Source: an uncultured bacterium (GTDB lineage Bacteria > Armatimonadota > SYMT01). Taken from it: DNA of 64,000 nucleotides. Below, in pieces: positions 27,656-44,686 of this stretch. The position numbers and the translations under genes are program-made. The notes under the pieces were generated by a model. The model made no database searches. It was given only the letters and a program-made list of their open reading frames with translations, and had not been told where the DNA came from. Location: positions 12,668 through 76,667 of the forward strand of contig CAZSRZ010000006.1 of the NCBI GenBank assembly GCA_964609085.1, given 5' to 3'. The first letter of the stretch is position 1. Every line of letters begins with the position of its first letter.

Positions 27656-29212
27656 CTATCTCGCGCTGGGGGCCGGGGAAGGAACTGCTGCTCGCGTCCC
27701 TGGGACCGCGCCCACGGCTCGCGCCAACTGATCCCTCGCAACGTTGTATTCGAAGAGCGCCCGGACCTCGTTGCTCTGCGCGCGGACCTGGGCAGAGAGG
27801 GCGTCCAACGCTTCAACGATGATGCTCAAGCCGGAGGTGTAACGCAGGAGGGCGATCCGGTAGTCCTCCTCGGCCGCGGTGACGGCCGCGCGTGCCGTCC
27901 CCACGTTGCGTTCGGCGGCGCGTAGGGTCGTCAACGCAATGGCCGTCTCCTGCTGCACCTGAAGCGCGGCCAACTGGCGTTCCTCATCCAATCTTCGTGT
28001 CTCTGCTCGGGCCGTACCCAACCGGGCTCGGCGCAGCCCACCATCCAGGATTGGCAGGGAAGCAGTGAAGCCGAAGGTGGCACCACCGAAGAGTGGCTCA
28101 CCCTTCATCTTCATCAAGTCGCCCATCACACCGATGCCGACCTGGGGTCGATAGGCGCTGCGAGCCGCCTCCACATCCGCCTGGCCCGCCTCGCGGCGGA
28201 AACCGGCCGCGGTGAGTTCTGATCGGTTCTTCTGGGCTGTCTCCAGCAGCCGACGCAGTTGCGGGTCGGGAGCACCGCCGCCGGCGCTGCCCGCCGGCCT
28301 CCCCGGCTCGCCGGCTCCCAATGCCGCCAACAACGCTGCACTCGACTCGAAGCCGAGGGAATCGATCAGCTCCAGTTCCGACTCCAGGTGTACACCCATG
28401 AGGGTCTTTAGCTGGATCAGGCCGATCTCCACATCCCGATCCGCGTTCGTCAGCATCTGCTCGGCATTGGCGACCTCGGCGGCATCGCGCAACACGTAGA
28501 ACCGGGGAATGCGCTGCTGCTCGAACGCGATCTGGTCAATCCGTTGTCTCTCGCGATTCTGATCAAGCGCCGCGCGGGCCACCGTCACGAGGCTTCGCCG
28601 CGCCTGAACCTCCCGGTATGCGATGCGAACCATGAGGGCCACATCCTGCCGCGTCGTCTCCAGTTCCGCCTGCGACGCTCCCCTCAGTGCGCGGGCCTGA
28701 ACCACCATCGCGCGGAGACGGCCCCCCGTGAAGAGCGGGAACATCAGGCTGATGTTCTGGTCGAAAAACGCCTGGCCGGGCACCCCCATGGAGATCTTGG
28801 GCTGGACAGCCGCCGGGCTGTCGAGGATGTTGGGCGCGCTCCCTCCCGAGACAAATGTATTCAACGAGGCCCAGGGTCGGCGCTCTGCCCTCGCCGCCTC
28901 TACTCGACCCACGGCAGCTTCCACTTCGAGCACCGCACCCCGCACCGCCGGACTCTCCCTGAGCGCGATCTCGACTGCCTTGTTCAAGCTCAATCCGCCG
29001 CCGATGCGGGGACGGACGGAGAGTACGGGCGGAAGCTCGCGGCTACCCCCGGCGGTGCGCGTGCTGGTCGGTTTCGTCGGCAGGGCTGCTGGCGGCGTTC
29101 CAGCGGGCCCGGCCGGAACGCCGCTTGGTTCAGCTCCGGCGATGCCGCAGACGGTGGCGGCGGTGAGCATCGCCAGGAGGGCGGGTAGGGCGTAGCGGGA
29201 AGGCGACCTCAT
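27656..29212 (-). CDS. TolC-family outer membrane efflux protein
   Basis: LSLNKAVEIAL..SP, two Pfam OEP-like repeats and PILDGG; the ATGA overlaps the upstream stop. Confidence 0.9.
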   Translation of the reverse strand: MRSPSRYALPALLAMLTAATVCGIAGAEPSGVPAGPAGTPPAALPTKPTSTRTAGGSRELPPVLSVRPRIGGGLSLNKAVEIALRESPAVRGAVLEVEAAVGRVEAARAERRPWASLNTFVSGGSAPNILDSPAAVQPKISMGVPGQAFFDQNISLMFPLFTGGRLRAMVVQARALRGASQAELETTRQDVALMVRIAYREVQARRSLVTVARAALDQNRERQRIDQIAFEQQRIPRFYVLRDAAEVANAEQMLTNADRDVEIGLIQLKTLMGVHLESELELIDSLGFESSAALLAALGAGEPGRPAGSAGGGAPDPQLRRLLETAQKNRSELTAAGFRREAGQADVEAARSAYRPQVGIGVMGDLMKMKGEPLFGGATFGFTASLPILDGGLRRARLGTARAETRRLDEERQLAALQVQQETAIALTTLRAAERNVGTARAAVTAAEEDYRIALLRYTSGLSIIVEALDALSAQVRAQSNEVRALFEYNVARDQLARAVGAVPGTRAAVPSPAPSAR

Positions 29213-29748
29213 CGGGGTTTCTCCTGCACTGCGTGGCTGAACCGGGCTCTCCACCTCCGCTCAACTTCCTGCGCCTGCCCGTCGTTCAGCGTCTTCGCGG
29301 CTTCGCGCCACCAGGTGCGGCGGACGGCCAGTAGCTGTCCGGTGAGCTGACTTACTGGTGCCGCGCGCTGGCGGAGCACCAACGGTGAGGCTGCCCGATC
29401 CGCCTCGCGCCGCATGGAGGACTCGAAGTTGGTGGTGGCCTGCTGCAGTGCCTCGCGGATGGGAGCGGTGTCTCGATCCCAACGGGTCTTGAGCGCGGTC
29501 AGCCGGGTGACCTGATGGGGACTCATCTTTAGCGCCTGATGCTGTGAGAGTAGCCAGGCGGGATCGGGTGGCGTCAGCTCGGTCGCGACGGGGATCTCGA
29601 CGTGGGTTCGGGAACTGGGCGGGCCTGCAGGCGTTGGAGTGGGGAGCATCCCTCTCCTCGCGAGCACGACCCCGGCAACAACGGCAAGCGCCATTCCCGG
29701 TCCGATGATGACCCGTGGGCGGCCGAGTGGGAACAGAGAGGGCCTCAA
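29209..29748 (-). CDS. Membrane-anchored helical protein, Spy/CpxP/ZraP-like
   Basis: An N-terminal transmembrane segment, then LKMSPHQVTRL and TLNDGQ (LTxxQ-like) helices; translationally coupled to both neighbours. Confidence 0.5.
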   Translation of the reverse strand: MRPSLFPLGRPRVIIGPGMALAVVAGVVLARRGMLPTPTPAGPPSSRTHVEIPVATELTPPDPAWLLSQHQALKMSPHQVTRLTALKTRWDRDTAPIREALQQATTNFESSMRREADRAASPLVLRQRAAPVSQLTGQLLAVRRTWWREAAKTLNDGQAQEVERRWRARFSHAVQEKPR

Positions 29749-32700
29749 TGCGAGCCCCCGCCAGCCGGCGCGTCGACGGGTGGTGCCGGCGAGGCGGCCC
29801 CGACCGCCCCCTCAGCGGCCTGGACCGGCCACTTCCAGTCACGGTTCAGAAAGATCTTGTTGAGCCACCGAACCAGATCGTCCGTGAACGTGTGCATGAT
29901 CGGCACATCGAACAGCGACAGGAAGGTGCCCGTCAGCAACCCGCCGATGGTGACCACCGCCAGCGAGCGGTAGGCATCCTGGCCCGTGGATGGAAAAAAG
30001 GCCGCTGGGACGATGGCGATAGCTGTGATGGTGGCACTCATCACGATGGGCCGCAGCCTCGCCGGGCAAGCGAGAGCCACGGCTTCGTCGCGAGGAACCC
30101 CTTCATCCCGGTACTGGACGATGAGGTCCAGCATCAGAATCGCGGTAGTGATGTCCATTCCGGCCACGACGATGAGCGCCATGATCGAAACGGACGAGAA
30201 TGCCTGCCCGGTGATGAACAACAGGAAGAAGATCCCGGCTAGCTGGTCGGGCAGTGAGGCAATCATCTGCAGAGGCTGGATGAACCCTCTGAACTGCGCC
30301 ACCAGGATCAGGTACATCATCACCAGCGACAGACCCAGCCCGATGAAGAGTCGTCTGAAGCTGTCCATCATCTGCGTCATGTCGCCGCGCATCTCAAGCC
30401 CATACCCGGGCGGGAAATTGATCGGCAGGATCCCGGCCTGCCGATTGCCCGCGTAGGCATTGCTGACCAGGTTCATCGCCAGGTCCATCGATGGCAGGTC
30501 GCCGATGCGGTAGTAGGCGGTCAACCCCATCACCCGTCGGAGGCCGTCGTGCTCGATGACGGTCGGCGCCTCCCGCCGCTCCACGGTGGCCACAGATTTC
30601 AGGGGGAGTTGCCGGCCGCTCGGGGTGGTCACGTAGAGGTTCTGTAGGTCGCCCTCGTTCCGGCGATCCTTGTCCTCATACCGAACGAGGATCGTGTTCT
30701 GGCGAAGATTCGGGAGGCGGTAAAACTCGTTGGTGAGGCCCCCGCGAAGGCTGTAGTACGCCTGCTGACTGATGCTCTCCGGCGAGAGCCCTGCCTCCTG
30801 GGCACGGACCGGATCCACCTGGATTTCGAAGTCCGGCACCCCCAGAGTCCAGGTCGTGGCCGGTTGGTACACGCCGGTCGTTTTCTTCGCCACACCCTCG
30901 AGCTGACGCCCGATGAGATCGAGCACCTTCAGATCGGTACCGTAGGCGATGAGGTGCACCGGAGCGGCGGCAGTCGCCATCACGTCGGAGCCCATCTCCT
31001 TGATTTGGAGGCGCCGGATGCCGGGGATGGTGGCAAACGCCTCCTTGTGGATGGTGTCCATCACCTGCCATATGGTCCGTTTTCGGTCGTCCTTGTCGCT
31101 GAAGGTGAGCATGAAAGCCGCGCCGTTCGCCTGTGGCATGGCATAGCCGGTGAAGAACGGACTCCAGCTCTCGAACATCGTCTCGGCACCGATCTCGATG
31201 CTGCCCTTCTCCAACTCCGGGTGCTTGAGCATGAGCAGCTCGATCTGCTTGACGGCCTTCTCCGTTTCCTCGAAAGAGGTTCCCGGCGCCATCTCCAGGA
31301 TGCCGTTTGCCTGACCGACGTCGGCAAGCGGCATCATTTCACTGCCGATCAGTGGATAGAAGGTGAAACCGCCGATGATCACGGCCAGGATGGCGCTGCC
31401 GACGAGCAGCCGATGGCGGAGGGTCCAGCGCACCGCCCTCTCATACGCCCGCTCTGTCCGCTCAAGGAATCGCTGGAAGGGGTCGATCACGGCGTACAGC
31501 AACCGCCCCACCGGGTGACGGCGATCCCCGGCGCGGTCCTCTTCCTTGCGGAGCAGGTGGGCACAGAGCAGGGTGGTAAGGGTGAAGCCCACGATCATGG
31601 AGCTGAGCTGGCAGAAGATCACCGGCCACACGAGTTCGCGGAACATGATCTCGACGATGCCGCCGCAGAAGAGCAGCGGAGAGAGCCCGACGAAGGTGGT
31701 GAAGGTCCCGGCGAGCACAGCGAGGCGAATCTCGCCGATTCCGTCGGCCGTGGCCGTACGCACATCCTTGCCCATCCGCAGGTGTCGCTCCACCGCGTGG
31801 ACATCCACGATCGAGTCGTCGACGAGGCGCCCGATTGAGATGAGGAGCCCTATGAGGGTGCCCGAGTTGAAGCTCATCCCCATGGGCACCATGAAGAGGA
31901 TGGCGAGCAACAGCGAGGCCGGCAGCGCGATCAGGGCAATCAACGCGCTCCGCCAGTCGCCCAGGAAGAACAGCAGCGCCACGCCCGTCATCACGATGGC
32001 GAGCAGCAGTTCCTCCCAGATGTTCGCGAACAGCACATCTGTAAAGCGGGCGTTGTCGTAGGCGGTCTCGAACCGAATGCCGGGGAAGTCGCGCTCCATC
32101 TGCTGGACCGCCTGCATGACGGTGGGCACCACCTGGGCCGAACTGCTCCCGGGATCCTGGATGACGGAGACCTCGATGGCCGGGTTCACCTCGCCCGCTG
32201 AGCCCGGCTCGTGCTTCAGATAGCGATAGGCGCTCCGGCGTTCCCAATGCGTGTCCACCACGCGGGCGACGTCTCGCACGAAAACCGTGCGTGGCGAGCG
32301 GCCTGCTCCCGACGTCCCGCCGCCCGAGCCGCCGATCGTGGATGGGAGAGGATCTTCGGCTCCCGAGCCCATCGCACCCATGCCGCCGCCGCCGAGCCCC
32401 GATCCAGCTTGACCCGACGGTCCGGCCCCAGCATTCGTCGCGGATGAGATGCTGGTGATCGGATACGCCAGCACGTCATCCGCCCCGGTTGCTCGGGTGT
32501 CCACGCGGACAATCCCCTCATCTGTCCCGTGAGTCAGGGTCCCGGCCGGGCGGCTGACGTTGAACCGATCAATCGCGTTCCGCACGTCGAGGATCGAGAG
32601 ACGGTATGCGGCCAGGCGCTCCCTGTCTACCACCACCTGGAGTTGACGCCGGTACCCGCCGAAGGGGACGACTGAATAAACTCGCTGCAGCCGCTTGAGG

Positions 32701-33392
32701 CGGTTGATCACCTCGTTGTCGGCGAATTCACGCAGTCGGGAGGGGGTCCAGCCCTTCTCTTCGTCGCCGGTCAAGGCGAGGGACAGGATCGGCAGGTTCA
32801 GGGGATCGATGGGGACGACCCACGAAGGCTTCAGGTTGGCACCCGTGCCTGGTAGGTTGGCCTGGATCACGTTCATCAGGGCCTGGGCATCGAAGAGAGC
32901 CTTCTTCATGTCCACCCCGTAATTGAACTCCAGGGTGACAAGGGAGAAGCCTTCTTGGGAGCTGGACCGCACGTAGTGGAGGTCCCTGACGTTGACCATC
33001 TGTTCTTCGATTGGCTTGCTGACGTACAGCTCCATCTCTTCGGCAGAGAGTCCGGGCATCATGGTGACGACACCGACCATCGGACTCTGCACGTACGGAG
33101 CGAAGCGGCGGGGCAGGGCGAAGCCGACCGCCATCGCGCCGAGCAAGAAGACCGCGAAGAAGAAGGCGATGATGAGGTAGGGATGCTCGATCGTCCAGCG
33201 TGGGAGGGCCCCGGCCGCGGTCGCCGCCCGGGACAGCAGCGCGGAGGTCGAACCAGGTCTTCGGCTGCCGTCGCCTTCCGCACTCACTTTAGTTGGTCGC
33301 TTTCCCGTGCCCGGAGTGCTCGTGACGCCCATCCGTCCCCGAGGGTTGAGCTCCGGTCGCCCGTCGCGCTCCCGGCAGCACTCCCGGCCCAC
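29745..33392 (-). CDS. RND efflux permease (AcrB/CusA superfamily)
   Basis: PGLSAEEME..VSKPIE, GRLVDDSIV, FRELVW, YLILVAQF and RLRPIVMS. The true start is probably ATG 33332. Confidence 0.93.
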   Translation of the reverse strand: MGRECCRERDGRPELNPRGRMGVTSTPGTGKRPTKVSAEGDGSRRPGSTSALLSRAATAAGALPRWTIEHPYLIIAFFFAVFLLGAMAVGFALPRRFAPYVQSPMVGVVTMMPGLSAEEMELYVSKPIEEQMVNVRDLHYVRSSSQEGFSLVTLEFNYGVDMKKALFDAQALMNVIQANLPGTGANLKPSWVVPIDPLNLPILSLALTGDEEKGWTPSRLREFADNEVINRLKRLQRVYSVVPFGGYRRQLQVVVDRERLAAYRLSILDVRNAIDRFNVSRPAGTLTHGTDEGIVRVDTRATGADDVLAYPITSISSATNAGAGPSGQAGSGLGGGGMGAMGSGAEDPLPSTIGGSGGGTSGAGRSPRTVFVRDVARVVDTHWERRSAYRYLKHEPGSAGEVNPAIEVSVIQDPGSSSAQVVPTVMQAVQQMERDFPGIRFETAYDNARFTDVLFANIWEELLLAIVMTGVALLFFLGDWRSALIALIALPASLLLAILFMVPMGMSFNSGTLIGLLISIGRLVDDSIVDVHAVERHLRMGKDVRTATADGIGEIRLAVLAGTFTTFVGLSPLLFCGGIVEIMFRELVWPVIFCQLSSMIVGFTLTTLLCAHLLRKEEDRAGDRRHPVGRLLYAVIDPFQRFLERTERAYERAVRWTLRHRLLVGSAILAVIIGGFTFYPLIGSEMMPLADVGQANGILEMAPGTSFEETEKAVKQIELLMLKHPELEKGSIEIGAETMFESWSPFFTGYAMPQANGAAFMLTFSDKDDRKRTIWQVMDTIHKEAFATIPGIRRLQIKEMGSDVMATAAAPVHLIAYGTDLKVLDLIGRQLEGVAKKTTGVYQPATTWTLGVPDFEIQVDPVRAQEAGLSPESISQQAYYSLRGGLTNEFYRLPNLRQNTILVRYEDKDRRNEGDLQNLYVTTPSGRQLPLKSVATVERREAPTVIEHDGLRRVMGLTAYYRIGDLPSMDLAMNLVSNAYAGNRQAGILPINFPPGYGLEMRGDMTQMMDSFRRLFIGLGLSLVMMYLILVAQFRGFIQPLQMIASLPDQLAGIFFLLFITGQAFSSVSIMALIVVAGMDITTAILMLDLIVQYRDEGVPRDEAVALACPARLRPIVMSATITAIAIVPAAFFPSTGQDAYRSLAVVTIGGLLTGTFLSLFDVPIMHTFTDDLVRWLNKIFLNRDWKWPVQAAEGAVGAASPAPPVDAPAGGGSH

Positions 33393-35712
33393 CCTGGCCC
33401 CAGGGCACAGCGGTCACGGAATCGCCTGGCCGGAGGGAGTCATGGCCGCGGATAACCACCCGCTGCCCTGCCTTCAGGCCGGCGAGAACCTCGGTGTGAT
33501 CGCCGTCGCTGGTGCCCACGCGCACGTCGACTCGCTGCACGGTATACCGACCGGTGCTGCCGTCCGGTTCGGCCAGCCACACGAATGCGGTCTGGTTTCC
33601 AGAGAGGATGCTGCTGGACGGCGCGCTTTGCCAGCGAATGGCGGCTGCCGGAACCCGCAACGCGCCGCCGCGCGTCCCCGCCCCGGAGGGGATTCGGATC
33701 TCCATGCGGAGGTACTGCCCCGGCAGAAAGCGCCGCGGCAGGTTGGGGAACAGGGCTTCCACAGTTCCGGTGCGAGTTGCGGGATCCATGGCGGGAGCGA
33801 TCGAGCTGATCCGTGCTTCGAGCGGGCCCCCCACCCCGTCCTGGGTTCGGATGAGGACGCGTGCCCCGAGCCGGATCCGGGCCAGATCGCTTTCCGCCAC
33901 GTTGGCCTGGAGGCGGATGGGCTGAATCTGGGCGACCCTTAGGATGGCTTGTCCCGGACTGACGAGCACGCCGGGGCTGATCAGCCGTTGAGTGACGACC
34001 CCATCGACGAGGGAGCGGATCTCGGAATAGCCGCGAACGATCCCCGCGGTGGTCAACGCTGCCTGCGCACTGCGAACCCCCGCCTGCGACTGCCGAATCT
34101 TTCCCGCGCCCGCCTCTGCCATCGCCTGCATCGCCCGGGCGTTTTCTTGTGCGGCCTCCAACTCGCCTTCGACCATTCGGATCCGTCCCGCGGCGGCGGC
34201 GATCTCTGATCTCGCCTGCTCCACTTTCGCTTCCATCCCCTCGACCCGAGCCTGCGTCTGGCTGATCTTGGCCTGCGCACCGTCCACCATCGCCTCCGCC
34301 CTTGCCAGCCGGGACTCGGCCGCGCGGATGTCGCTGCGGACGGCGCTCAGCCTCGCCTCAGCCTGCCGCACCTTCGCGTCCACTCCCTTCGCAACGGCCT
34401 CTTCACGCTGGAACTCTTCGCCCGAGATCGCTCCCTTCTCGAGTAGCGCCCGTAACCGCGGAAGCTGCAGTCGCCAGTACGCCTGGTCCGCCTTCATGGC
34501 CGAAAGCATGGCCGCTGCCTCCGGCAGCCCTTCGCGGGCCGACTGCAGCATCGAGTCCATTGCGGCCCGCTCATGCCGGGCGGCCGTCAGATCCGCCCGC
34601 ATGCCGAGCAACTCGCCCCGCGCCTCCGAGACCCCGGCCAGGGTCTCCTGCAGCATCGCCCGGGTGCGGGCTTCCATCCGGCGGGACTCTTCGACGGCAC
34701 CCTCACGGCCGCGCACCTCGGCCTTCGCCTGCGCTGCCGCTGCCAGGGCCTGCCGGTACTCAAACCCGGCGATGCTGGCCATCTGTTCCGCCATGGTGCG
34801 GTTCGCGGCTCTCTCCTGAACTCGTGACTGTGCCTCACGAGTATCCAGCTTCGCCAGCAACTGATCTTTGCGGACCGTGTCCCCTGCGTAAAGCGGCATC
34901 CAGGTGATCCAGCCGGTGACGCGGGGATAAACGTCCTGCTCGACGTAACCCACCGCTGATCCGGTGTAGCGGACAGAGGCCTCCACGGGAGCCTCGTCCA
35001 CTGTCGCTAGCGCTACCGGCGCCTCCCCCGGCGGCGCGGGCATCTTGGACATGTCCGAGGCCAGAGCGTCAACCAGGCTCATGGACCCGGGTCGTTTCCA
35101 GGCACGGACCGCCCAGCCGGAAATCGCGAACGCCGCCACGATCAGGATCATCGCCACCAGTAGCGACGGGTGAAAGAGGTCCTTCCACGAGATCCGGGCT
35201 CCGATCCGCCGCAGCCGGAACAACACGAACGCCACGCCGGCGACCAGGATGATCCAGGGGAGGGCAGTCCATAGCGTGTCGAACCCGCCGGCTTGCCGCC
35301 CGGTAGTCGCCCCGCCGGTGTCCTGACCGGTTCGGACCGTCAGGCGTGCGGTGGCCTCGCCAGCCGCGGCCGAGATGCTCACCGTGACCTCGTAACCGCC
35401 CTCCATTGCGAAGCGCGCCGGCGCACTATACACGCCGGGCCTGCCGGCCTCAGGACTCGCCGCCTCCTCCTGCTCCCCCATGTCCATGTCCGGCATCTTG
35501 GCGAGAACGCGGACTTTTGCTCCGGCGACCGGTCCGGATTCCTCGTCTCGGAGAGCGATGAAGATCCGGGCATTGCCTGTGGGGATGACGGCGGGATCCG
35601 TCCACACATCCGCCCGGTACGCGCCGGCAGAGAGCGGTAGTGCGGCGGCTGCCGGCGATGCGACAACCCCCACGCCCAGGACGGCCAGGGAAATGCCGAT
35701 GACCCATCGCAT
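33289..35712 (-). CDS. RND periplasmic adaptor with an N-terminal YtkA/FixH-like domain and a very long coiled coil
   Basis: Signal peptide, AKMPDMDMG..GVY..F.MEGGY, two transmembrane segments, VYPRVTGWI..GDTV, a ~270-aa heptad region, IRSLVDGVV, and a His-rich tail. Confidence 0.88.
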   Translation of the reverse strand: MRWVIGISLAVLGVGVVASPAAAALPLSAGAYRADVWTDPAVIPTGNARIFIALRDEESGPVAGAKVRVLAKMPDMDMGEQEEAASPEAGRPGVYSAPARFAMEGGYEVTVSISAAAGEATARLTVRTGQDTGGATTGRQAGGFDTLWTALPWIILVAGVAFVLFRLRRIGARISWKDLFHPSLLVAMILIVAAFAISGWAVRAWKRPGSMSLVDALASDMSKMPAPPGEAPVALATVDEAPVEASVRYTGSAVGYVEQDVYPRVTGWITWMPLYAGDTVRKDQLLAKLDTREAQSRVQERAANRTMAEQMASIAGFEYRQALAAAAQAKAEVRGREGAVEESRRMEARTRAMLQETLAGVSEARGELLGMRADLTAARHERAAMDSMLQSAREGLPEAAAMLSAMKADQAYWRLQLPRLRALLEKGAISGEEFQREEAVAKGVDAKVRQAEARLSAVRSDIRAAESRLARAEAMVDGAQAKISQTQARVEGMEAKVEQARSEIAAAAGRIRMVEGELEAAQENARAMQAMAEAGAGKIRQSQAGVRSAQAALTTAGIVRGYSEIRSLVDGVVTQRLISPGVLVSPGQAILRVAQIQPIRLQANVAESDLARIRLGARVLIRTQDGVGGPLEARISSIAPAMDPATRTGTVEALFPNLPRRFLPGQYLRMEIRIPSGAGTRGGALRVPAAAIRWQSAPSSSILSGNQTAFVWLAEPDGSTGRYTVQRVDVRVGTSDGDHTEVLAGLKAGQRVVIRGHDSLRPGDSVTAVPWGQGGPGVLPGARRATGAQPSGTDGRHEHSGHGKATN

Positions 35713-35794
35713 TGATCCGCCCCGCGTTGCTCCTGGTCTCACGTCGTCCTCCGGTTACTCCGCCGGTCATGCTCGACTTCGCCCCGGAATTGAG

Positions 35795-36994
35795 CTAATG
35801 CAGCACGACGAACCCGCCATCCGGACGGGGGAAAGCCGTTGCCAGTCCCCAGGTCGGGATGCCGCCCTCGATCCGTCCCCGCTCCGTCAACGGGCTGCCG
35901 GTTCGATCGTAGAGCTGCCAGGCCAGCGAGCCGCCGCGCTGCCAGCCGGTCCCCTCGTCCCAGATCAGCAGCAGTTCTCCCGCCCGGTTCACCGTGACGA
36001 ACGGGTGCTTGCGCCCCGCCGGCGGACCCGGTGCTGTGATCTGTCGAGCCAGCCTCCGCGTGCCGGGGTCAACCCGGGCAAACCGGATCTGCCCCGCCGT
36101 TTCCCACGTCCCCCATACACCATCAGGGCCCTCCGCGAGCGACTCGCTGCTCATGGGACAGGCATTGATCACCCACGGGTCGATCCGCCCTCCCTGGAAG
36201 GCCGCTCGCGGGCCGGCGGCAACCAGGAACACCATGTCCCGGTTCACCTTTTCCGTGGCCGCCCGATAGAGGAGATAGATTGCCCCCTTCTGATCCGCAA
36301 AGATCTTGAGGCTGCAACAGGCGCAAGCGCCGGTCGGGTCCTGGTAGATACTCGCCTCCGGACCAAACGTGCGACCGTCGTCGGAGGAGCGGGCCAGCCA
36401 GACGCGCCGGGCACCTTCCCCGGCGCCTCGCGAAGGGGATGCATGCCACGCCACGTAGACGTTGCCCTGGGGATCGGCGGCGACCGACGCGCCCCCGTCC
36501 AGGTCTGCCGTGTTGCCCAGCAGGTCTCGCTGCGGCGCAAACTTACCCCCGCTCTCCAGGCGGGTGTAGTAGAGGGGCGCCCCCTTGGGCGAGCCATGCC
36601 CTCCCGCGCCATTCCAGACGACGTGGACGGTATTGGCCCTGCCCAGCGCCAGTTGTCCCCCGCGGATCGTGCCCGCCGCTACGGCAGTCCCGGCATCGCT
36701 ATTCACTCGCAGCGGTTCCGACCAAGCGCTGCCGCCAGGCGATCGACGCTGGTAGTAGAGATCCCCCCCGCGCGGATCGCCCTTGAAGTAGACGAGATGG
36801 GCGGCTCCGGCGGCGTCGACCACCGCCTGGGGCTGGATCCCGCTATTGGGGGTCTTGATCACTTCCACCCGGGCCGCCGCGCCCGCGGGCGCGGCGGCTG
36901 GGCCGGTGGGGAGTAGCCCGCTTGAAGTCAGCAAGCCGAAGAGCGCCGCACGATGGAACCATCGGCGACCCGGTCGAGAGGATTTCAGGTGCAT
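35795..36994 (-). CDS. Exported BNR/sialidase-like beta-propeller protein
   Basis: Asp-box SSDDGRTF, repeated VHVVW/VYVAW blades, and ACACCSL. Confidence 0.65.
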   Translation of the reverse strand: MHLKSSRPGRRWFHRAALFGLLTSSGLLPTGPAAAPAGAAARVEVIKTPNSGIQPQAVVDAAGAAHLVYFKGDPRGGDLYYQRRSPGGSAWSEPLRVNSDAGTAVAAGTIRGGQLALGRANTVHVVWNGAGGHGSPKGAPLYYTRLESGGKFAPQRDLLGNTADLDGGASVAADPQGNVYVAWHASPSRGAGEGARRVWLARSSDDGRTFGPEASIYQDPTGACACCSLKIFADQKGAIYLLYRAATEKVNRDMVFLVAAGPRAAFQGGRIDPWVINACPMSSESLAEGPDGVWGTWETAGQIRFARVDPGTRRLARQITAPGPPAGRKHPFVTVNRAGELLLIWDEGTGWQRGGSLAWQLYDRTGSPLTERGRIEGGIPTWGLATAFPRPDGGFVVLH

Positions 36995-37020
36995 GGGCTT
37001 ACTCCTGGAGAGCGCGTCTC

Positions 37021-37434
37021 CTAGTGGTGGTGACCGTGGTCAGGGGCCTTCAGCGGCTTCGCATACTTGCCGGGGTGGGAGTGGAAGGTCTGATGTGACT
37101 TCGCATCGGCGAACAGGAAGATGCCACCGCCATGCGCCATCTTCATGGTTTTGGAGGTGACGGCGAAGGACTTGCCGGTCACCGGGTCCTTCGTCTGTTT
37201 CACGTATTTGGCCGGGTCCTTCTTGATCTCCCCGATGCAACTGGGGCAGCAGACGGACACGAACTCGTTGTTCACCCGAACGTAGGGTGCGTGCGCCCGA
37301 TCCTTGATGGGACCCTTCATCACCGGACAGGTGAGGGGCTTGGCAGCAGTGGGAGCCTTCTCGGCCCTGCCGACGCCGCCGATCGCCGTCACCAGCACCG
37401 CGGCGGCGAGGAGCCAGGTCGATCTCTTGAGCAT
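37021..37434 (-). CDS. Exported YHS/TRASH-domain protein
   Basis: CPVM..CCPSC..DP.KY, a second DPVTG unit, and a C-terminal DHGHHH. Confidence 0.8.
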   Translation of the reverse strand: MLKRSTWLLAAAVLVTAIGGVGRAEKAPTAAKPLTCPVMKGPIKDRAHAPYVRVNNEFVSVCCPSCIGEIKKDPAKYVKQTKDPVTGKSFAVTSKTMKMAHGGGIFLFADAKSHQTFHSHPGKYAKPLKAPDHGHHH

Positions 37435-37506
37435 TACCGGTTCATCCTTTCGGTTGTGGGCTTCCGCCGGAGGACCCGGCAGAAGCTTCTGCGTGCGGAG
37501 GACGCA

Positions 37507-38310
37507 CTATTGCGCCTTCTTTACAAACTCTTCCGGGGGCTTGATGGCTCTAGGATCCTTCTTGACTAGCGCCAGGTATTCCTCAAGGCAGGGCGGGCAA
37601 CAGAAGACGTACTCCTTGCCGGCGATGACCCAGCTCAGTCCAGGGTTTGCCTTGGTCAGGGTGATGGGGCAGATCCTGTCTCCAACAGCGGGACGAAGGT
37701 CGTGGCTGACCTTCACCGATCGGAATTTGACGGCCGGCAGCTGGTTGCCGTTGGCGGCAATGTCCGCCTCCGTGTAGGCGCCGCCGGGTGTGAGATAGAG
37801 GAGCCGATCCTTGGACGTGGCCGGCGCCGCCGCGATGCTGAGCGCTCCGGTGGGGAAGAGGGCCTTGATCGTGCCCAGCGCGGAGAGCATTGCTTTGTGC
37901 TGACGAACCGTCTCCGGGTACTTGCCCGCATCGGCATACCGGTCTAGCTGCTCTGCCAGCCGATCAATGATCCGGATATGCGACTCCAGTTTCTTACGTG
38001 CCACGGCGGAGAGCGACCTGCTCTTGTCCGGCAGGGTGCGGACGAGGTCGCGAATCTCGAAGGCCACGGGGTGAACCTCATCCAGGCGTCTTTCCCGGAC
38101 GAGTACGGCCAGGTCCTTCACCTGAAGCTCAACATCGGCCCACACCGAGGCCGCCTCTCCGTACGCCACGCGGAGGGCGTGGGTGGCCGTTGGGCTCGCC
38201 GGCGGCTTGACCGGAGTCCGAGTGGCACCACGGGCGAATGCCGGCATGGCAGTCAACAACAGGCCGAGCAACGTGAGGCTGAAGATGGGTTGCATGCGGG
38301 TTCCTTTCAT
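37507..38310 (-). CDS. Exported protein with a helical bundle and a C-terminal YHS-like domain
   Basis: Signal peptide, an all-alpha His-containing region, and CPIT..EYVFCCPPC. Confidence 0.7.
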   Translation of the reverse strand: MKGTRMQPIFSLTLLGLLLTAMPAFARGATRTPVKPPASPTATHALRVAYGEAASVWADVELQVKDLAVLVRERRLDEVHPVAFEIRDLVRTLPDKSRSLSAVARKKLESHIRIIDRLAEQLDRYADAGKYPETVRQHKAMLSALGTIKALFPTGALSIAAAPATSKDRLLYLTPGGAYTEADIAANGNQLPAVKFRSVKVSHDLRPAVGDRICPITLTKANPGLSWVIAGKEYVFCCPPCLEEYLALVKKDPRAIKPPEEFVKKAQ

Positions 38311-38313
38311 CGG

Positions 38314-39111
38314 TTAGAAGCTGTAGGAGTAGCCGGCGACGAGGCGGACTCGATCTCTCGCCGCGCCCTTCCAGCCTGCAAGGTCGGATTGGATCCCCAG
38401 ATCCATCACCGATCGGACGCCGACCTGTCGGCGGAGTCCGATGCCGACGCCGAGTACGCCGCCGCTGTCGAATCTCTCGCCGGCACGGATCGAGATCTCC
38501 GCCAACCCGGTCGTGCTGAAGGACGTGGGGTATCCCAGCGGCCGGCTGTAGCCGAGGACGACACCCGGCCGGAACTCGCGATCTCCGGGCGGGGCACCCG
38601 GGTTGCCCTCCAGGTCGAGGTTCAGGTGAACGCGGCCGTACTGGTCCGCCTGCCGACTGGCAATACCGCGAAGCCGGAACGCCACCCCACGCGAGCCGTC
38701 ACCGGTGGGCGCGGCGAGGTCGGCTCGCAGCGCCAGGGCAGGAGTTCGTCCGTGCTCACGGTTGAAGTTGTGGAACAACCCGACCGACACGTCGCCCGGA
38801 TCGACGCCAGACCAGCTGCCGCGCTCCTGACCGCCGATCGCGGGCGCGAAGCCGATGCTGAGGTGGCTATTCAGGCTGAATCCGTAGAGGTATTCGGCGG
38901 ACAGTCCAAGCTTTGTGGAGCGCCCCCTCGCCCAGCCGAGGGCGAGTCCAATTTCAAGGGCCTGTTCCCGAAAAGCTATGGCTCCCGCATCGTCAAAGGT
39001 CAACGGACGGTTGGCGTCCAGGTTATTGTGGTCCACAGCCTGCGCGGGTCCGGCGGTCAGCAGGGCGATGGTGACGAGGGCAAGGAGGGTGTTGTTTCGT
39101 CTCAAGGGCAT
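38314..39111 (-). CDS. Outer-membrane beta-barrel (putative transporter)
   Basis: Signal peptide, alternating amphipathic strands, and a C-terminal GYSYSF. Confidence 0.75.
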   Translation of the reverse strand: MPLRRNNTLLALVTIALLTAGPAQAVDHNNLDANRPLTFDDAGAIAFREQALEIGLALGWARGRSTKLGLSAEYLYGFSLNSHLSIGFAPAIGGQERGSWSGVDPGDVSVGLFHNFNREHGRTPALALRADLAAPTGDGSRGVAFRLRGIASRQADQYGRVHLNLDLEGNPGAPPGDREFRPGVVLGYSRPLGYPTSFSTTGLAEISIRAGERFDSGGVLGVGIGLRRQVGVRSVMDLGIQSDLAGWKGAARDRVRLVAGYSYSF

Positions 39112-40715
39112 CGTGCCGCCCCCTTCCCATCAGCGGCATGGGGCTGGTAGGGATTCTCGACCGGGCCACGCGGCTTGACGTAGGTGTCCGGCTTCTGGCC
39201 CTCGCGTTCGGCCCACGCGACGAACGTGAGCGCCTTGGCGCCGGACAGGTCCGGGTTTGCCCTCACGTAGGCATCGAAGGCGGCGCGGGTGGTGAACGCC
39301 CGTGACCACATATCGCAGCCCGCGTGGCTGGCCTCGCTTTCCAGGAAGACCACGCCGGGTGTTGTGGTCTTCAGGTTCCCCTGCTCATCTGAGGTCACCA
39401 CCACGGTGCGGTACGGGTCCTCGGTGGGGATCCGCAGGAGGGCGCGGCCCTTCGTTTCGGCGGCCATGTCGCGCGCGCAGAGCGGGCACCGCACTCGCAT
39501 CGACCAACCATCGGCGGTCACGGTGGGGTTGCGCCACCAGTCGCCCCCGTCCCAGAGGGGCATCGAGCAGTGGTGGCAGTCCGCCATGCTCATCCAACCC
39601 ATGGACGGCATCCACATCAGATCCGGGGTCATCCCTTTCATCATCCCCATCCCCGGCATGCCGACGAAGTGCCGATGGTCGTGAACTCCGGGGGCGCCCG
39701 CGGGTTGTGCGGACTCGCCCGGTTTCTCACCGCGGTGGGCTGCGGCGGAAACCTCCCAGATTGCCAGCCGGATCTGCTCTTCCTTCCGGGGATCGGACAG
39801 CTCCGGGGAAGCCAGGATGTCGTTCACCATGTCGTGCAGCATGTGCAGGTTGTCGAAGGCGTTGGCGATGTGCGGGAAGCGTGCCGCGAAGATAGGGCTG
39901 ACCTCGGCGAACATCGGCATGAAGGGTCGATCGGTCCGGTACAGCTCCACCCGCCGGTACTGGTCGCCGACCAGGGCATAGGCAGCCTTCTGGTCCTCGG
40001 AGGAGGTCCGGAAGAGCACGTCGTACATCGCGCCCTGCAGCCAGTGGTAGCCCCAGAACAGCCCGTTGACCTTCGGATAGGTTCGTCGAAACTTCCCGCT
40101 GTACGGCCGGCTGTCCAGGTGTTCCATGTTCATGGGAAGCGGCGTGATGGCGTACGGCACGCTTTCAAAGTAGTACTTCCAGAGCCGCTCGATCTCCCGG
40201 TCCTTCTCGGCGTGGGTGAGCCGGCGCGACGCCAGCACGTCCACGGTCTGCGCGTGCAGAACATGGGTCCAGTCGAATACCTGCTCCAGCACGCCGTACT
40301 TGCGGCCGAATGTGGGGGCGATGGCCGCCTCGTCCGGCATGAATCGGGGCGGATTCTTCAGCACGCGGTCAATTCGGCCGAAGGTCGTCGTTTCCAGCCG
40401 AGCGGCTTTCCCGGTCACAAGGTCCTCGTAGGCCATAGCGTGCCCCACCGCCACGGCGTTCAAGTCCCGCGCCAGGGGCTCGTTGTTGTAGACGGCGAAG
40501 TTGTAGGCACCCCGCCGGTAGAAGAGATGATTCTGCTGGGTATTGGTCAGCCAGCCCGGGAGCCCACCGGGGTCGCGAGGTAGTTCCCCAGAAGGCATGC
40601 GGGGCGCGTCGCCATGACCAGAATGGCCGTCCGGCCGGGGCTGGGCCCCGGTCGGACGGGCTGCTGGTGGCAGGCTGATCAACAGCAGCGCGGACACGAT
40701 CCAGGCCTTGTTCAT
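39102..40715 (-). CDS. Exported His-repeat helical protein with a Met-rich linker and a C-terminal NosL-like domain
   Basis: FDWTHVLH / FDNLHMLH repeats, GMPGMGMMKGM, then CHHC..RCPLCA..HAGC..TTRAAF. Start taken at ATG 40715 (signal peptide MNKAWIV). Confidence 0.7.
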   Translation of the reverse strand: MNKAWIVSALLLISLPPAARPTGAQPRPDGHSGHGDAPRMPSGELPRDPGGLPGWLTNTQQNHLFYRRGAYNFAVYNNEPLARDLNAVAVGHAMAYEDLVTGKAARLETTTFGRIDRVLKNPPRFMPDEAAIAPTFGRKYGVLEQVFDWTHVLHAQTVDVLASRRLTHAEKDREIERLWKYYFESVPYAITPLPMNMEHLDSRPYSGKFRRTYPKVNGLFWGYHWLQGAMYDVLFRTSSEDQKAAYALVGDQYRRVELYRTDRPFMPMFAEVSPIFAARFPHIANAFDNLHMLHDMVNDILASPELSDPRKEEQIRLAIWEVSAAAHRGEKPGESAQPAGAPGVHDHRHFVGMPGMGMMKGMTPDLMWMPSMGWMSMADCHHCSMPLWDGGDWWRNPTVTADGWSMRVRCPLCARDMAAETKGRALLRIPTEDPYRTVVVTSDEQGNLKTTTPGVVFLESEASHAGCDMWSRAFTTRAAFDAYVRANPDLSGAKALTFVAWAEREGQKPDTYVKPRGPVENPYQPHAADGKGAARCP

Positions 40716-40729
40716 GGGTGCCACGTCGA

Positions 40730-41227
40730 TCAGCGAGCGGGAGTGGCCAGAGCCACCATCTCGGCCAGAGTGAGCGGCTTCGCGTCGGCAAGCAACTCGT
40801 GATTCGCGTGGATCCACTTCTCGAAAGCAGACCGGGTGGTCAACGCTCGGTAGCCGAGCTGGCAGCTTCGGTGGTTCACTTTTTGCCCCACGAAGACGGC
40901 GCCCTCGGGTGAGGCGGTCCACTTGCCGTCCTTGCGCGCAAGGGTCACGGGCTTTCCCTTCAGCTCGGAGGGCGCGAGGATCGTGATGTCGCCCGTGTAG
41001 CTCTTCGAGTCCTGGAGCGCACAGAAAACACAGCGGTACTCGATCCGCTTCCGGCCACTCTTGAGGGCGACCTCATTGTCGAGCCGATCCGTGTCCTGCA
41101 CCACATCCAACTTGCAGACAGGGCACTTCGCCTCGTGAGCCCTGGCCGTATCGAGCCTCGGTCCGGCGACCGCGATCGCCGCCAGTATGCCGGCGATGAT
41201 CCATCGCCGCGAGATTATGGCATGCAT
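40730..41227 (-). CDS. Exported Cys/His metal-binding protein, NosL-like
   Basis: Signal peptide, CPVC..RCVFCA..HRSC..TTRSAF; AGAGGAG ribosome-binding site. Confidence 0.7.
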   Translation of the reverse strand: MHAIISRRWIIAGILAAIAVAGPRLDTARAHEAKCPVCKLDVVQDTDRLDNEVALKSGRKRIEYRCVFCALQDSKSYTGDITILAPSELKGKPVTLARKDGKWTASPEGAVFVGQKVNHRSCQLGYRALTTRSAFEKWIHANHELLADAKPLTLAEMVALATPAR

Positions 41228-41395
41228 TGCAAACTCCTCTGGGCGCCCTTGCGGGGGCGGGGATTGAGTGTCGCCGTCGGCGTCCCGGTTGGGGGACGCA
41301 CGGCATTCATCCGGGTGCCGTTGGGGGACGGGCGGCCGACCGTCACGGACGGATCGACCAGGGCGATCCGCCGGAGGCGGGGTAACTCCGTCCCG

Positions 41396-41872
41396 TTAGT
41401 GGGTGACGGCGGTCGGAGGGGCGCGCGACCGATCAGCGCCGCGCTGGGGCGGTCGCAGAGGCCCGGAAGCCGGCTGAGGCAACCGCAAGCCGCCCGTAGG
41501 CAGGATCAGGAGACGATCCGCGGTAGGCAGCAGGGCCGGGCTTGCCGCGAGGGGCCTCGCCGCCGGTTTGGGCTCCGTGGCCACCGGGGCAGAAGGCGTC
41601 TCGACCGTGCACGTGCACGAGGCCGAGGCCAGTGACCGGCCGGTGTGATGGGTCGGCGAGACGGCCTCGGAGCCGGATCGGCAACAACAGGTCGCTTCGC
41701 CGGACATCCCGCAGGCCCTGGGCGCCTGAGGCTGGGCAGAACTCGCCGCCGTTGCCGTCGGTGCAGTGGAGCTCCCGCAGGCGACCGCCATCCCGGGAAG
41801 GCCAGTGGCGAACGCCACCGCCAGGGCCGTGGGAAGGGCCATCCAGATTCTGTTGCGCCGCAGGAGTTTCAT
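41396..41872 (-). CDS. Cys-rich leader ORF with a C-terminal RAPP motif (DUF2946/CruR-like)
   Basis: An N-terminal hydrophobic helix, ACG..CCC..CTC, and a Pro-rich tail ending SRAPPTAVTH. It is the first gene after the CsoR-boxed promoter. Confidence 0.75.
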   Translation of the reverse strand: MKLLRRNRIWMALPTALAVAFATGLPGMAVACGSSTAPTATAASSAQPQAPRACGMSGEATCCCRSGSEAVSPTHHTGRSLASASCTCTVETPSAPVATEPKPAARPLAASPALLPTADRLLILPTGGLRLPQPASGPLRPPQRGADRSRAPPTAVTH

Positions 41873-41910
41873 GAAGGTTGCGCCTGTCCGTGAACAGGTC
41901 GTTGTCGAGG

Positions 41911-41939
41911 AGTATATACCCCTAGGGGGTAGAGATCAA
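41911..41939 (-). promoter_or_regulatory. Sigma70 promoter with a CsoR-type operator in the spacer
   Basis: Minus strand TTGATC-N17-TATACT; TACCCC-TAG-GGGGTA palindrome at 41917-41931. Confidence 0.8.
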
Positions 41940-41958
41940 CCACCGGCTGATCCCGATT

Positions 41959-44577
41959 TCACATGGACAAGGACCCGGTGGATGCACTGACGTTCCGGTT
42001 GTCGGCGTGGGTTTGTTGGGCAGGGACGTCGCCCGTTCGCGCGGACTGGGACCGAAACCCTCGCAGTCGCAGGCTGTTGGTCACCACCGAGATGCTGGAG
42101 AGAGCCATGGCCGCACTGGCGATGATCGGGGACAGAGTGATGCCGAAGACCGGGTAAAGCGCCCCTGCCGCTATCGGGATGCCCAGGACGTTGTAGAGGA
42201 AGGCGAAGAAGAGATTCTGGCGGATCGTGCGCATCGTGGCCCGTGAGAGCCGGATCGCCGCGACCACGCCCGTCAGTTCGCCGCTCACCAGGGTGATATC
42301 CGACGCTTCCATGGCGACATCGGTGCCTGTTCCGATGGCGATCCCGACATCAGCCTGCGCCAGGGCCGGGGCGTCGTTGATGCCGTCGCCGACCATGCCC
42401 ACCACGTGGCCTGCCTCCTGGAGCATCCGAACCTGTGCCACCTTCTGCTCCGGCAGCACCTCGGCGACGACGCGGTCGACGCCTACCTGCCGGCCGACCG
42501 CCTCAGCGGTGCGCAGATTGTCTCCGGTGACCATAACCACCAGCAGTCCGGCTTCGCGGAGAGCGGCCACCGCCGCGGCTGACCGGGCCTTCACCCGATC
42601 CGCAACGGCGATCACCCCGGCCGCCCGACCGTCCACGGCAGCCAGCATCGGTGTCTTCCCATCTTCGGAGAGCCGGTCCATGCTCTCCAGCAGCGGCGTC
42701 GGGTCGATGCCGCGCTCATCCAACAATCGCCGATTGCCGACGAGCACGGTGCGGCCGTCGACGGTCGCTTCCAGCCCGCGCCCGGTCAGCGAGTTGAAGG
42801 AGGATGCCTGGCTGGGGCTGAGGCCCCGAACCTCGGCGGCCCTGACGATCGCCTCCCCGAGCGGATGCTCCGAGGACTTCTCGGCACCAGCAATCAACCC
42901 CAGGAGTTCCGCCTCGTCCCATCCGTCAGTAGGTATGACATCGGTCAGTTCCGGTCGCCCTTCGGTGATCGTGCCGGTCTTGTCCAGGATCAGGGCGGTG
43001 ATCTTGTGCGCTGTCTCCAGGCTTTCACCCCCACGGATCAAGATGCCGTTTTCGGCACCGCGGCCGGTGCCGACCATCACCGCGGTCGGCGTCGCCAGGC
43101 CCAGAGCGCAGGGGCACGCGATGATGAGCACCGAGACGAAGGCGATCAGAGCCTGCTGAAGCCGCGTTTCCACCGGGGCCAGCGTCATCCAGAGGAAGAA
43201 CGCGACGACGGCGATCCCCAGCACCCCCGGCACAAAGACACCGCTGATGACGTCCGCCAATCTCTGGATCGGAGCCTTGCTGCCCTGAGCCTCCTGCACC
43301 AGCTTGATGATCTGCTGCAGAGCAGTCTCCTTGCCCACCTTCGTCGCTTCGAGCCGGAAGGCGCCGGTTCGGTTAATGGTGGCACCGAAGACCTCATCCC
43401 CCGGGGCCTTCTCCACCGGTAGGCTCTCGCCGGTCAACATCGACTCATCCACCGCGCTCCCGCCGAACCGGACGACCCCGTCCACGGGGATCTTCTCGCC
43501 TGGTCGGACCAGCACCAGATCTCCGGCGGCCACATCCTCGACGGGGATCTCGAGCTCCGCCCCATCACGCAGCACATGGGCGGTCCGCGGTTGGAGCCCG
43601 ATCAGGCGACGAATCGCGTCGCCCGCTCGAGCCTTTGCACCGGCCTCCAGCATCCTGCCGACCAGGATCAAGGCGATGATCACGGCTGCTGCCTCAAAGT
43701 AGACGGGTGCCATTACCGGGCCGTGGCCGCCGCCGTGAGCGTGGGTGGGAACGACGAGCCCGGGAAAGAGGGTCGCGATGACGCTGAAAACGAATGCGGC
43801 CCCGGTGCCCATGGCGATCAGGGTGTTCATGTCCGCCGAGCGGTGCCAGAGGGCACTCCAGGCACCACGGAAAAACGGTGCTCCTGCATAGGCGAGGACG
43901 GGCGTCGTGAGCAACATCTGGACCCAGTGGTTGCCGGGGAAATCCAGGTGCAGCATGGCGAGGACCGTCACAGGCAACCCGAAGACCAGAGCGACCCAGA
44001 AGCGGCGGCGGAGGTCCGCGTACTCTCGCTCACGGGCAACCCGTTCCCAATCCTCATCGCCAACGCCCGCCGCCTCCGCCTCGATGGGCGTGGGCGGTTC
44101 CAGCGCGTGTCCCTCGCTGACGAGGGCCTGCCGTACCGCGTCCGGCTCCGTGAGGCCGGGGAAATACTCGACCACCAGAACCTGGTTGGCCTCGTCAAGG
44201 GCGGCACTCACCACGCCGCGCAGTCGAGCAGCCGTCTCGACAACCCCCGTAGCCTGCTCCGCGCCTGCCGGGGTCAACCGAATCCGAGCCTCAGCCGTAC
44301 CGGCCGTACCATAGCCCGCCCGCCGGATGGCACCGACCAGCAGCCCGGTGTTCGTCTCCGTCGGCTGATAGGCGATCGTCGCCTGGTGGGCAGCGAAGTT
44401 CACCCCGGCCTCGGTCACGCCGGGAGTGCGGCGGAGCACCTTCTCGATACGGGCAGCGCACGCCGCACAACTCATCCCCGTCACTGGAACCGTGATCTGC
44501 TCGTCCGCCGTCCCCTCGGGGCCAGCCGTCGGACCGGATTGGCCCTCGCGGACCACTGACCCCATTGAGCCTGCCAT
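41959..44577 (-). CDS. copA: Cu(I)-translocating P1B-1 ATPase
   Basis: [38 protein letters not shown] and AMALSS; GAGGTG ribosome-binding site before ATG 44577. Confidence 0.95.
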
Positions 44578-44624
44578 CGCACTCACCTCGTCTCCCCTCC
44601 GAGCGCCTGTCGGCCGGATGTCCA

Positions 44625-44686
44625 ATACCCTATGGGGGTATACCAGCGCCAACACTTTTATACCCCCTACGGGTATGACCTGTCAA
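44625..44686 (-). promoter_or_regulatory. copA promoter with two CsoR-type operators
   Basis: Minus strand TTGACA (44686-44681)-N18-TATAAA (44662-44657); ATACCC-N5-GGGTAT at 44625-44641 and 44660-44676. Confidence 0.85.

Follow-up and report, generated by a model that had tools for sequence, protein, structure and literature searches.

The 64,000-nucleotide stretch of DNA analysed here, called the window below, comes from an uncultured bacterium of the Armatimonadota (GTDB lineage SYMT01; contig CAZSRZ010000006.1). Between its positions 27,656 and 44,686 lies a run of twelve genes that we read, with a probability of roughly 0.6, as a two-promoter copper-defence island repressed by CsoR. The island is a mosaic of four parts: the Cu(I) ATPase gene copA; a leader gene (g2) whose product ends close behind an RAPP motif; a cassette of three genes (g3-g4-g5) accompanied by TRASH/YHS-like proteins; and a resistance-nodulation-division (RND) efflux pump. 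The twelve genes are not one conserved unit, and the invariant part is g3-g4-g5 only, present in 80 of the 80 related loci compared. We favour copper defence over copper uptake because of the CsoR control and the company that the cassette keeps, namely CopA, CsoR, cupredoxin, DUF305 and Csp.

All twelve open reading frames (ORFs), from copA to the TolC-like g12, were confirmed on the minus strand at 27656-44686, as the original prediction of twelve co-directional genes had it; every island feature given below lies on that strand. The ORFs are tightly packed, with gaps of at most about 80 nucleotides or overlaps, the exception being a 168-nucleotide spacer behind g2, and no intergenic terminator was found among the twelve genes, the g8-g9 junction included. 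A DUF1501 gene and an HD-GYP/GAF/GGDEF gene flank the island. Base composition gives no sign of recent transfer, the GC profile being flat (63-69%) across the region. Four identities pass curated cut-offs (copA, the adaptor g9, the RND permease g10 and the TolC-like g12), while those of g3, g5, g6, g7 and g8 are sub-threshold or given by the fold only.

The control by CsoR is best seen in the operators. The pattern TACCC-N5-GGGTA has three exact matches in the window (0.62 expected), and these are its sole exact matches in the whole 5.15-Mb genome, which is 95.7% complete. Two of the boxes belong to the copA promoter (44626..44686), where we read a -35 element TTGACA at 44686-44681 and a -10 element TATAAA at 44662-44657: operator 1 (44661-44675) overlaps the -10 element and operator 2 (44626-44640) is downstream of it. 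The third operator (TACCCCCTAGGGGTA, 41917-41931) is placed exactly between the -35 TTGATC and the -10 TATACT of a second promoter (41911..41939) that sits in the 86-nucleotide gap behind copA, so that both promoters carry CsoR-type boxes, as first proposed. Directly upstream of the copA -35 element, at 44719-44960, is an 83-bp tandem repeat (2.9 copies, 89% matches), whose three copies are the sole ones in the genome.

The gene behind the first promoter, copA (41959..44586), encodes a P1B-type Cu(I) ATPase scoring 613.9 bits against TIGR01511 (cut-off 397). Its likely start is the GTG at 44586 that follows GGAGGGGAG, and the listed ORF extends to 44655. Profile matches cover the HMA, E1-E2_ATPase and Hydrolase domains, and the translation carries the CxxC of the HMA domain (MSCAAC), the transmembrane CPC (ACPCALG) and DKTGT, which together place it among the P1B-1 Cu(I) ATPases. 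A csoR gene is present in the genome on another contig, C141 (PF02583, 89.4 bits), and its product has a cysteine followed after 25 residues by H-x3-C, the Cys-His-Cys spacing of the Cu(I) ligands. As the boxes are unique in the genome and CsoR is encoded on C141, the island is the sole predicted CsoR regulon.

High Cu(I) lifts the repression by CsoR. With an operator within promoter 2, the genes 3' of copA should therefore be induced by excess cytoplasmic Cu(I), in keeping with the original prediction that they form a copper regulon. CsoR boxes also precede the leader and cassette in seven relatives (L006, L008, L009, L027, L040, G021 and G035). The arrangement resembles the CsoR-CopA(Z) operons of Bacillus subtilis (copZA) and Mycobacterium tuberculosis (cso) in its G/C-tract pseudo-palindromic operators overlapping the promoter, in the C-H-C ligand spacing of CsoR and in a P1B-1 ATPase with HMA domain and CPC motif. 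It differs from them in that csoR and the copZ-like genes lie apart from the island, on other contigs, and in that an extra operator, absent from those systems, controls a 10-kb operon of exported proteins.

The second line of evidence is the conservation of the cassette. The twelve island proteins were compared by tblastn with 80 fetched related loci: g4 and g5 stand together in all of them, with g3 in every locus whose contig reaches upstream of g4. Synteny is conserved for these three genes. Two other island genes follow the cassette less closely, g6 standing behind g5 in about 20 of the 80 loci and copA within 10 kb in 29 of the 80. Among the 53 related loci of at least 15 kb, 50 have copper-linked neighbours: copA in 27, CsoR in 19, cupredoxin in 29, DUF305 in 12, DUF2231 in 15 and YHS proteins in 44-48. 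In the genus and family to which the window belongs, the cassette adjoins csoR, cupredoxin, copA, DUF305 or Csp, and CsoR boxes stand ahead of the leader. A 3.6-Mb contig (L002) has the cassette and then YHS-cupredoxin, CsoR, CopA, cupredoxin and Csp, and the order in the complete genome CP021423 is YHS-YtkA, DUF2231, cupredoxin, g3-g4-g5, CopA and DUF305.

The g4 protein occurs in 277 species-level genomes, spread over Armatimonadota, Elusimicrobiota, Acidobacteriota (Holophagales), Zixibacteria and Ignavibacteriales, among others. Within Armatimonadota it is found in 26 of 205 genera; as a copper module the cassette is accessory and patchy in its distribution. In CP021423 (L060, 3715-5762) the cassette island adjoins a type IV secretion system coupling protein and a relaxase, which suggests that it is carried there on an integrative conjugative element. 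Three of the loci (L006, L007 and L009) come from records of metagenome-assembled genomes labelled Actinomycetota or Actinomycetes whose GTDB family or genus is that of the Armatimonadota window, and these labels are probably wrong.

The exported proteins of the island carry conserved Cys, His and Met motifs, and this, with the copper-linked setting of the core cassette, agrees with the view that they are uncharacterised metal proteins, which would bind copper. The first of the cassette, g3 (40730..41227), is a 165-residue exported Cys/His protein with a MerB-like domain. The residues concerned are H31, CPxC35-38, CxxC66-69 and H119xxC122, and the four cysteines and the HxxC are conserved across 64 sequences. 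The match to the MerB family PF03243 is sub-threshold (E 8e-5; 23 bits, cut-off 27). The protein is homologous to the C-terminal domain of g4 (E 2e-11), with which it has a CxxC...CxxC...HxxC signature in common. It had been called NosL-like, a likeness that stands at the level of the fold only: the NosL family model gives no match to g3 at E <= 10, and nos genes were found neither in the window nor in the related loci inspected.

Of special interest is g4 (39102..40715), a 537-residue exported protein with no current Pfam match and no meaningful relative in a sequence profile search of the PDB. Its AlphaFold2 model (predicted local distance difference test, pLDDT, 84; predicted template modelling score 0.85) divides into a helical domain of about 270 residues, a short beta segment rich in Met (HDHR...GMPGMGMM) and an alpha/beta C-terminal Cys/His domain. 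The helical domain (about residues 55-325) is an internal duplication (E 2e-9), each half of which has one helix with a single histidine (GH92, YH224) and one HxxH helix (FDWTHxLH, FDNLHMLHD). The histidines concerned (H92, H151/H154, H224 and H291/H294) are invariant in the g4 family and nearly so in 343 remote clusters, and the HDHR and GMPGMGMM motifs are likewise invariant in the family. Foldseek found no match to this domain in the PDB, and a relationship to DUF305/CopM was rejected (hhalign probability 0.1). At least 504 homologues of g4 exist, all annotated as 'hypothetical', and they are 52-78% identical across phyla.

The only Foldseek match of g4 in the PDB is that of its C-terminal domain to MerB structures (probability 1.0, target template modelling score 0.42, about 125 columns). 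The relation of g3 and g4 to the MerB/NosL fold thus consists of this match and the weak hidden Markov model match of g3, with E-values that are marginal in both cases (8e-3 for the fold, 8e-5 for the model). It is set apart from the known members of the fold by the family's own CxxC, CxxC, HxxC signature, by the missing NosL match and by the absence of nos or mer genes nearby.

The third cassette protein, g5 (38314..39111), was modelled as a 12-stranded outer-membrane barrel (AlphaFold2 pLDDT 89), and its best Foldseek match is the COG4313 channel 4RL8 (E 2.4e-8, template modelling score 0.66), followed by FapF (E 6e-7) and several 12-stranded autotransporter barrels. The barrel that had been proposed is upheld by this model, while the score against the Pfam family Phenol_MetA_deg stays sub-threshold (18.8 bits, cut-off 22). 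With 4RL8 and FapF, g5 has in common the 12-stranded barrel, a size of about 240 residues and an N-terminal extension. It differs in being sub-threshold for the Pfam family, in its own invariant head (DH-N...RPL-FDDA) and in that copper loci always pair it with the His-helix domain and sometimes join the two in one protein. This head, DHNNxDxxRPLxFDDA, is the most conserved part of the protein and is confidently modelled; a GYSxxF motif is found at the C-terminus.

The association of barrel and helical domain extends beyond the cassette itself. Remote homologues of the g4-type helical domain are again paired with a barrel gene in two genomes (G084 and G131), where the partner barrels do pass the Phenol_MetA_deg cut-off (28.2 and 23.2 bits). 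In two proteins (P0151 and P0135) the helical domain is fused behind the barrel, and the P0151 barrel is homologous to g5 (E 3e-8). Gene pairing and fusion together are good evidence that the g5 barrel and the His-helix domain work together physically. Other fusions of the g4-type helical domain are to a DUF2231 membrane domain or a pyrroloquinoline quinone (PQQ) propeller. Literature searches on COG4313 with copper and on DUF2231 with copper returned nothing relevant. The pair in G084 (L085, 3954-11215; G084:C3) is a remote paralogue pair, and consists of a 594-residue His-helix protein and a Phenol_MetA_deg barrel lying between a two-domain multicopper oxidase and CopA.

The first gene behind promoter 2, g2 (41396..41872), encodes a 158-residue exported Cys-rich leader with a hydrophobic N-terminal export signal, CCC and CxC motifs and the C-terminus ...SRAPPTAVTH, in which RAPP occupies residues 150-153. 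Of the 74 related loci with enough upstream sequence, 23 have directly ahead of g3 an ORF that ends in this way, its RAPP or RGPP standing 1-7 residues from the stop. Twelve of the leaders were compared (140-236 residues long): overall identity is 24-34%, yet CCC, CxC and RAPP do not vary. Among relatives, synonymous changes occur at each of the four RAPP codons, and so selection acts on the leader peptide. In the Abditibacteria (L037-L039) the leaders end in RGPP-x-FSS where others have GRAPP-xx, a form of the arrest motif particular to that lineage.

Behind the leader lies the structured spacer (41228..41395; 168 nucleotides), which has more C than G (70 and 52) and a minimum free energy of -77.7 kcal/mol; the spacers between leader and g3 in relatives measure 88-425 nucleotides. 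In the minimum-free-energy fold of 41205-41460, the Shine-Dalgarno sequence AGAGG of g3 pairs with the CCUC of the Pro-Pro codons of RAPP, about 180 nucleotides upstream, and a ribosome stalled on RAPP would release it. An RNA switch of this kind, pairing the g3 Shine-Dalgarno with the CCUCC of the Pro-Pro codons, is not relied on here: because these codons are not conserved in the 23 relatives, we treat the pairing as specific to the window.

Upstream ORFs with RAPP are widespread ahead of copper genes, across phyla (PMC12992588), and g2 matches published copper-sensing nascent peptides. In CutF, periplasmic copper leads to stalling, which opens the ribosome-binding site of the detoxifying oxidase gene cutO (PMC9973294; 10.1101/2025.02.05.636593). 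In CruR, the RAPP motif is needed for copper control of the downstream operon, via Rho-dependent termination (PMC9426467). Like the leaders of Rhodobacter capsulatus cutFOG and of Bordetella pertussis, g2 opens its operon, begins with an export signal, carries a conserved Cys motif and has its RAPP or proline-rich stalling motif at the C-terminus, and a long structured spacer comes after it. It differs from them in its Cys motifs (CCC and CxC, where theirs are CxxC or CxxxC), in the greater length of its leader type, in the combination with a CsoR operator and in a downstream cassette that is not among their described targets. Membership in DUF2946 was rejected, as 0 of the 12 leaders match the Pfam model even at E <= 10; for this reason we class g2 as a peptide that would work like CruR and CutF but stands outside their family. 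It is a candidate copper-sensing ribosome-arrest peptide, the stalling being what we infer from these likenesses. The polarity of CutF, in which copper means on, would be the coherent one for g2 because the operon is also CsoR-induced; the polarity of CruR would be expected to cancel that induction.

Three further exported proteins follow the cassette. The 267-residue g6 (37507..38310) has a helical N-domain and a C-terminal TRASH/YHS-like motif (CPx...CCPPC) with conserved C214, C237, C238 and C241. The 137-residue g7 (37021..37434) is TRASH/YHS-like and ends in an HGHHH tail. Both had been described as YHS-type. The CPx...CCPxC motif, of which the two have the CCPxC in common, is conserved; the Pfam scores are below gathering for g6 (TRASH E 4e-3, 17.6 bits against a cut-off of 27; YHS E 0.03) and for g7 (YHS E 1.4e-3, 19 bits against 30.3). 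The 399-residue g8 (35795..36994) is an exported protein that had been described as a BNR propeller, and it stays a candidate for a BNR/sialidase-like beta-propeller, matching BNR_4 at E 9e-4 and a PDB sialidase at E 0.023. Orthologues of g8 lie near the cassette in L005, L008, L037, L038 and G035. No meaningful PDB sequence relatives were found for g6, g8 or g11. The N-terminus of g8 (36940-36994, ...SRPGRRWFHRAALFGLL) is a twin-arginine-like signal, which suggests that it is exported folded or as a cofactor-bearing propeller, and the protein carries a conserved-looking Cys cluster, GACACCSLK.

Profile searches of the genome found no multicopper oxidase (Cu-oxidase_3 domain), and no CusF (PF11604) above the cut-off. 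The absence of csoR, copZ, cusF and a multicopper oxidase, first noted for the window, therefore holds genome-wide for the last two, while csoR and two small HMA-only ORFs (C83:15020-15202 and C53:11546-11728, in open frames of 111 and 122 amino acids) stand on other contigs. The two ORFs probably encode chaperones of the CopZ type; neither is linked to copA or has a CsoR box nearby.

The g4 cassette would have the task presumed for CueO and the CopI-type cupredoxins, handling Cu(I) exported by CopA, and g4 has neither fold nor sequence in common with them; cupredoxins adjoin the cassette in 29 of the 53 larger loci, and the window has neither protein. The original prediction had proposed a relay that takes the place of CueO and CusF in this lineage. 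This agrees with the window's own family, where the cassette is present in 6 of 6 genomes and the oxidase in 0 of 6, and does not extend to a rule across the phylum: among 401 Armatimonadota genomes, g4 occurs in 49, the oxidase in 80 and both in 6, where 9.8 would be expected (Fisher p=0.10, uncorrected for phylogeny). A general replacement of the oxidase by the cassette had appeared in 151 genomes (overlap 0, p=0.04), but was rejected on the overlap of 6 in the larger set. Because they co-occur in six genomes, cassette and oxidase are not simple substitutes. In G277 their genes are 10 kb apart.

The last four genes form the RND/TolC block. The adaptor g9 (33289..35742) consists of an N-terminal periplasmic YtkA domain (PF13115, 45 bits), two transmembrane (TM) helices and an HlyD-type adaptor (HlyD_D23 83.7 bits; TIGR01730 169.5 against a cut-off of 94.9). 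The permease g10 (29745..33392; start codon uncertain) scores 583 bits against ACR_tran, and a Gly/Ser-rich insert of about 55 residues (...GAGPSGQAGSGLGGGGMGAMGSG...GGSGGGTSGAG) lies in its periplasmic part, at about 32250-32420. The membrane-anchored helical protein g11 (29209..29748; 179 residues) had been described as Spy-like, which we could not confirm: it has no match in Pfam, NCBIfam or the PDB, and no homologue in the 80 loci at E 1e-5. The TolC-type outer-membrane factor g12 (27656..29254) scores 150.6 bits against OEP (PF02321) and 87.7 bits, sub-threshold, against TIGR01844.

As in CusCFBA, a tripartite set of RND permease, adaptor and outer-membrane factor stands downstream of copper-controlled genes, and the Met-rich periplasmic module of the island could play the role of CusF or of the CusB N-terminus. 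The systems differ in that g10 is not of the CusA/CzcA type, that there is no CusF here and that the Met site belongs to a YtkA domain which two TM helices join to the adaptor in one protein. The motif in question, MPxMxMG, is conserved in the orthologues of g9 and in the YHS-YtkA protein of CP021423 (L060), which suggests that the domain may capture Cu(I), much as CusF or the CusB N-terminus does.

It is nevertheless conceivable, if doubtful, that copper is handled by no more than copA, leader, cassette and TRASH/YHS proteins, and that g9-g12 are a general efflux system merely downstream of them. By sequence g10 is indeed not Cus-type: it is AcrB-like, scoring 467.6 bits with the multidrug-type RND_permease_2 against 292.6 bits with the CusA/CzcA model TIGR00914 (cut-off 701.45), and has the AcrB-type VDD in TM4. 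For this reason its copper role is read from the context only. The RND block is also absent beside the cassette in the closest relatives (G021, G005 and G035), and g11 has no homologue in the related loci. Against an unrelated pump speak the single strand, the short gaps and the missing terminator between g8 and g9, as well as the conserved Met motif of the adaptor and the recurrence of YtkA, fused to YHS, in another copper island. The same TolC/YtkA-adaptor/RND set (40-72% identity; 64-72% for the orthologues of g10) moreover adjoins the cassette in three other genomes (L027, L033 and L041).

Copper acquisition or cuproprotein maturation, which the original prediction had raised as an alternative, is improbable. 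Here the barrel would import copper, g3 and g4 would be NosL-like chaperones supplying periplasmic or membrane cuproenzymes, and the RAPP leader would shut the operon off at copper sufficiency, as CruR does. NosL is a copper chaperone that uses the MerB/NosL-type fold, COG4313-type barrels are passive channels, and cupredoxin genes are frequent neighbours of the cassette, all of which would suit uptake. So would the leader, since copper-uptake operons begin with RAPP leaders of the CruR type (PMC9426467). With a CsoR operator in its promoter, however, the operon should be induced when Cu(I) is high, and the neighbours are genes of efflux, storage and detoxification (CopA, Csp, DUF305 and CsoR). 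Furthermore, the patchy distribution is that of an accessory module, with conjugation genes beside the island in one complete genome, and the loci inspected showed none of the genes sco, PCuAC, nos or cox.

Least likely of all is that g5, like FapF or an inverse autotransporter, exports g4 or its helical domain to the surface to bind or transform copper outside: FapF and the autotransporter barrels among its Foldseek matches and the order of the fusions (barrel N-terminal, helical domain C-terminal, as in inverse autotransporters) would fit, but the top structural match is a small-molecule channel, a specific site in the lumen would suit both the conserved polar or His residues of g5 and its high-confidence N-terminal segment, a linker or passenger-type repeats are absent, and g3 has the domain of g4 with no obvious need for surface export.

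Several observations weigh against our main reading. Three of the large loci (L014, L017 and L029) have no copper neighbour at all. A recognisable RAPP leader accompanies the cassette in 23 of 74 loci only, none of the leaders compared matches DUF2946, and in the case of CruR copper turns the operon off, which would run against induction through CsoR. The permease ranks with multidrug pumps and not with CusA. We know of no COG4313 channel that is a metal exporter, and a passive barrel would be an odd exit route under high external copper. Finally, the CxxC pairs of the exported proteins could bind structural Zn or form disulfides instead of holding Cu(I).

With these reservations, the copper-defence island may work as follows. 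Rising cytoplasmic Cu(I) would cause CsoR to leave its three operators, whereupon promoter 1 would express the Cu(I)-exporting ATPase CopA and promoter 2 the long operon headed by the RAPP leader. The metal or redox state of the CCC and CxC motifs during translocation would modulate the stalling of the ribosome at RAPP, and the stalling would decide downstream transcription and translation across the spacer. In the periplasm, g3 and g4, with their common MerB-fold domain and the Met-rich Cu(I)-type segment of g4, would capture the Cu(I) delivered by CopA; through the helical domain of g4 and the g5 barrel it may then be passed to or through the outer membrane, or be held or oxidised there. The g6 and g7 proteins would be accessory periplasmic Cu binders, and the RND-TolC pump with its Met-rich YtkA adaptor an energised exit route. 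The specific steps of the relay, from CopA to g3/g4 and on to g5, are considerably less assured than the reading of the island as a whole.

A more speculative idea, which we put forward tentatively and think unlikely to hold in full, concerns the His-helix domain of g4. Its four helices carry six near-invariant histidines and it has no relative in Pfam or the PDB; it might be a new binuclear metal centre docked on the barrel, which would oxidise periplasmic Cu(I) or gate its exit. It would then be an outer-membrane detoxifier distinct from multicopper oxidases and from Cus, wired in some lineages to electron carriers (as cupredoxin and DUF2231 neighbours and fusions might indicate) and switched on by a non-DUF2946 class of RAPP leader.

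Three things are new in this island: the cassette of g3, g4 and g5; the helical domain of g4, for which the family and structure libraries searched contain no relative; and the RAPP leader outside DUF2946. To our knowledge, little is understood, outside the Proteobacteria, of the way in which diderm bacteria that have neither CueO nor Cus rid the periplasm of Cu(I), and the cassette, nearly always embedded in copper loci, is a testable candidate for this task. The leader would extend RAPP arrest-peptide control of copper genes to a family outside DUF2946 that is coupled to a classical CsoR operator. This combination may offer a clean system in which the transcriptional sensing of cytoplasmic copper can be set against the translational sensing of periplasmic copper.

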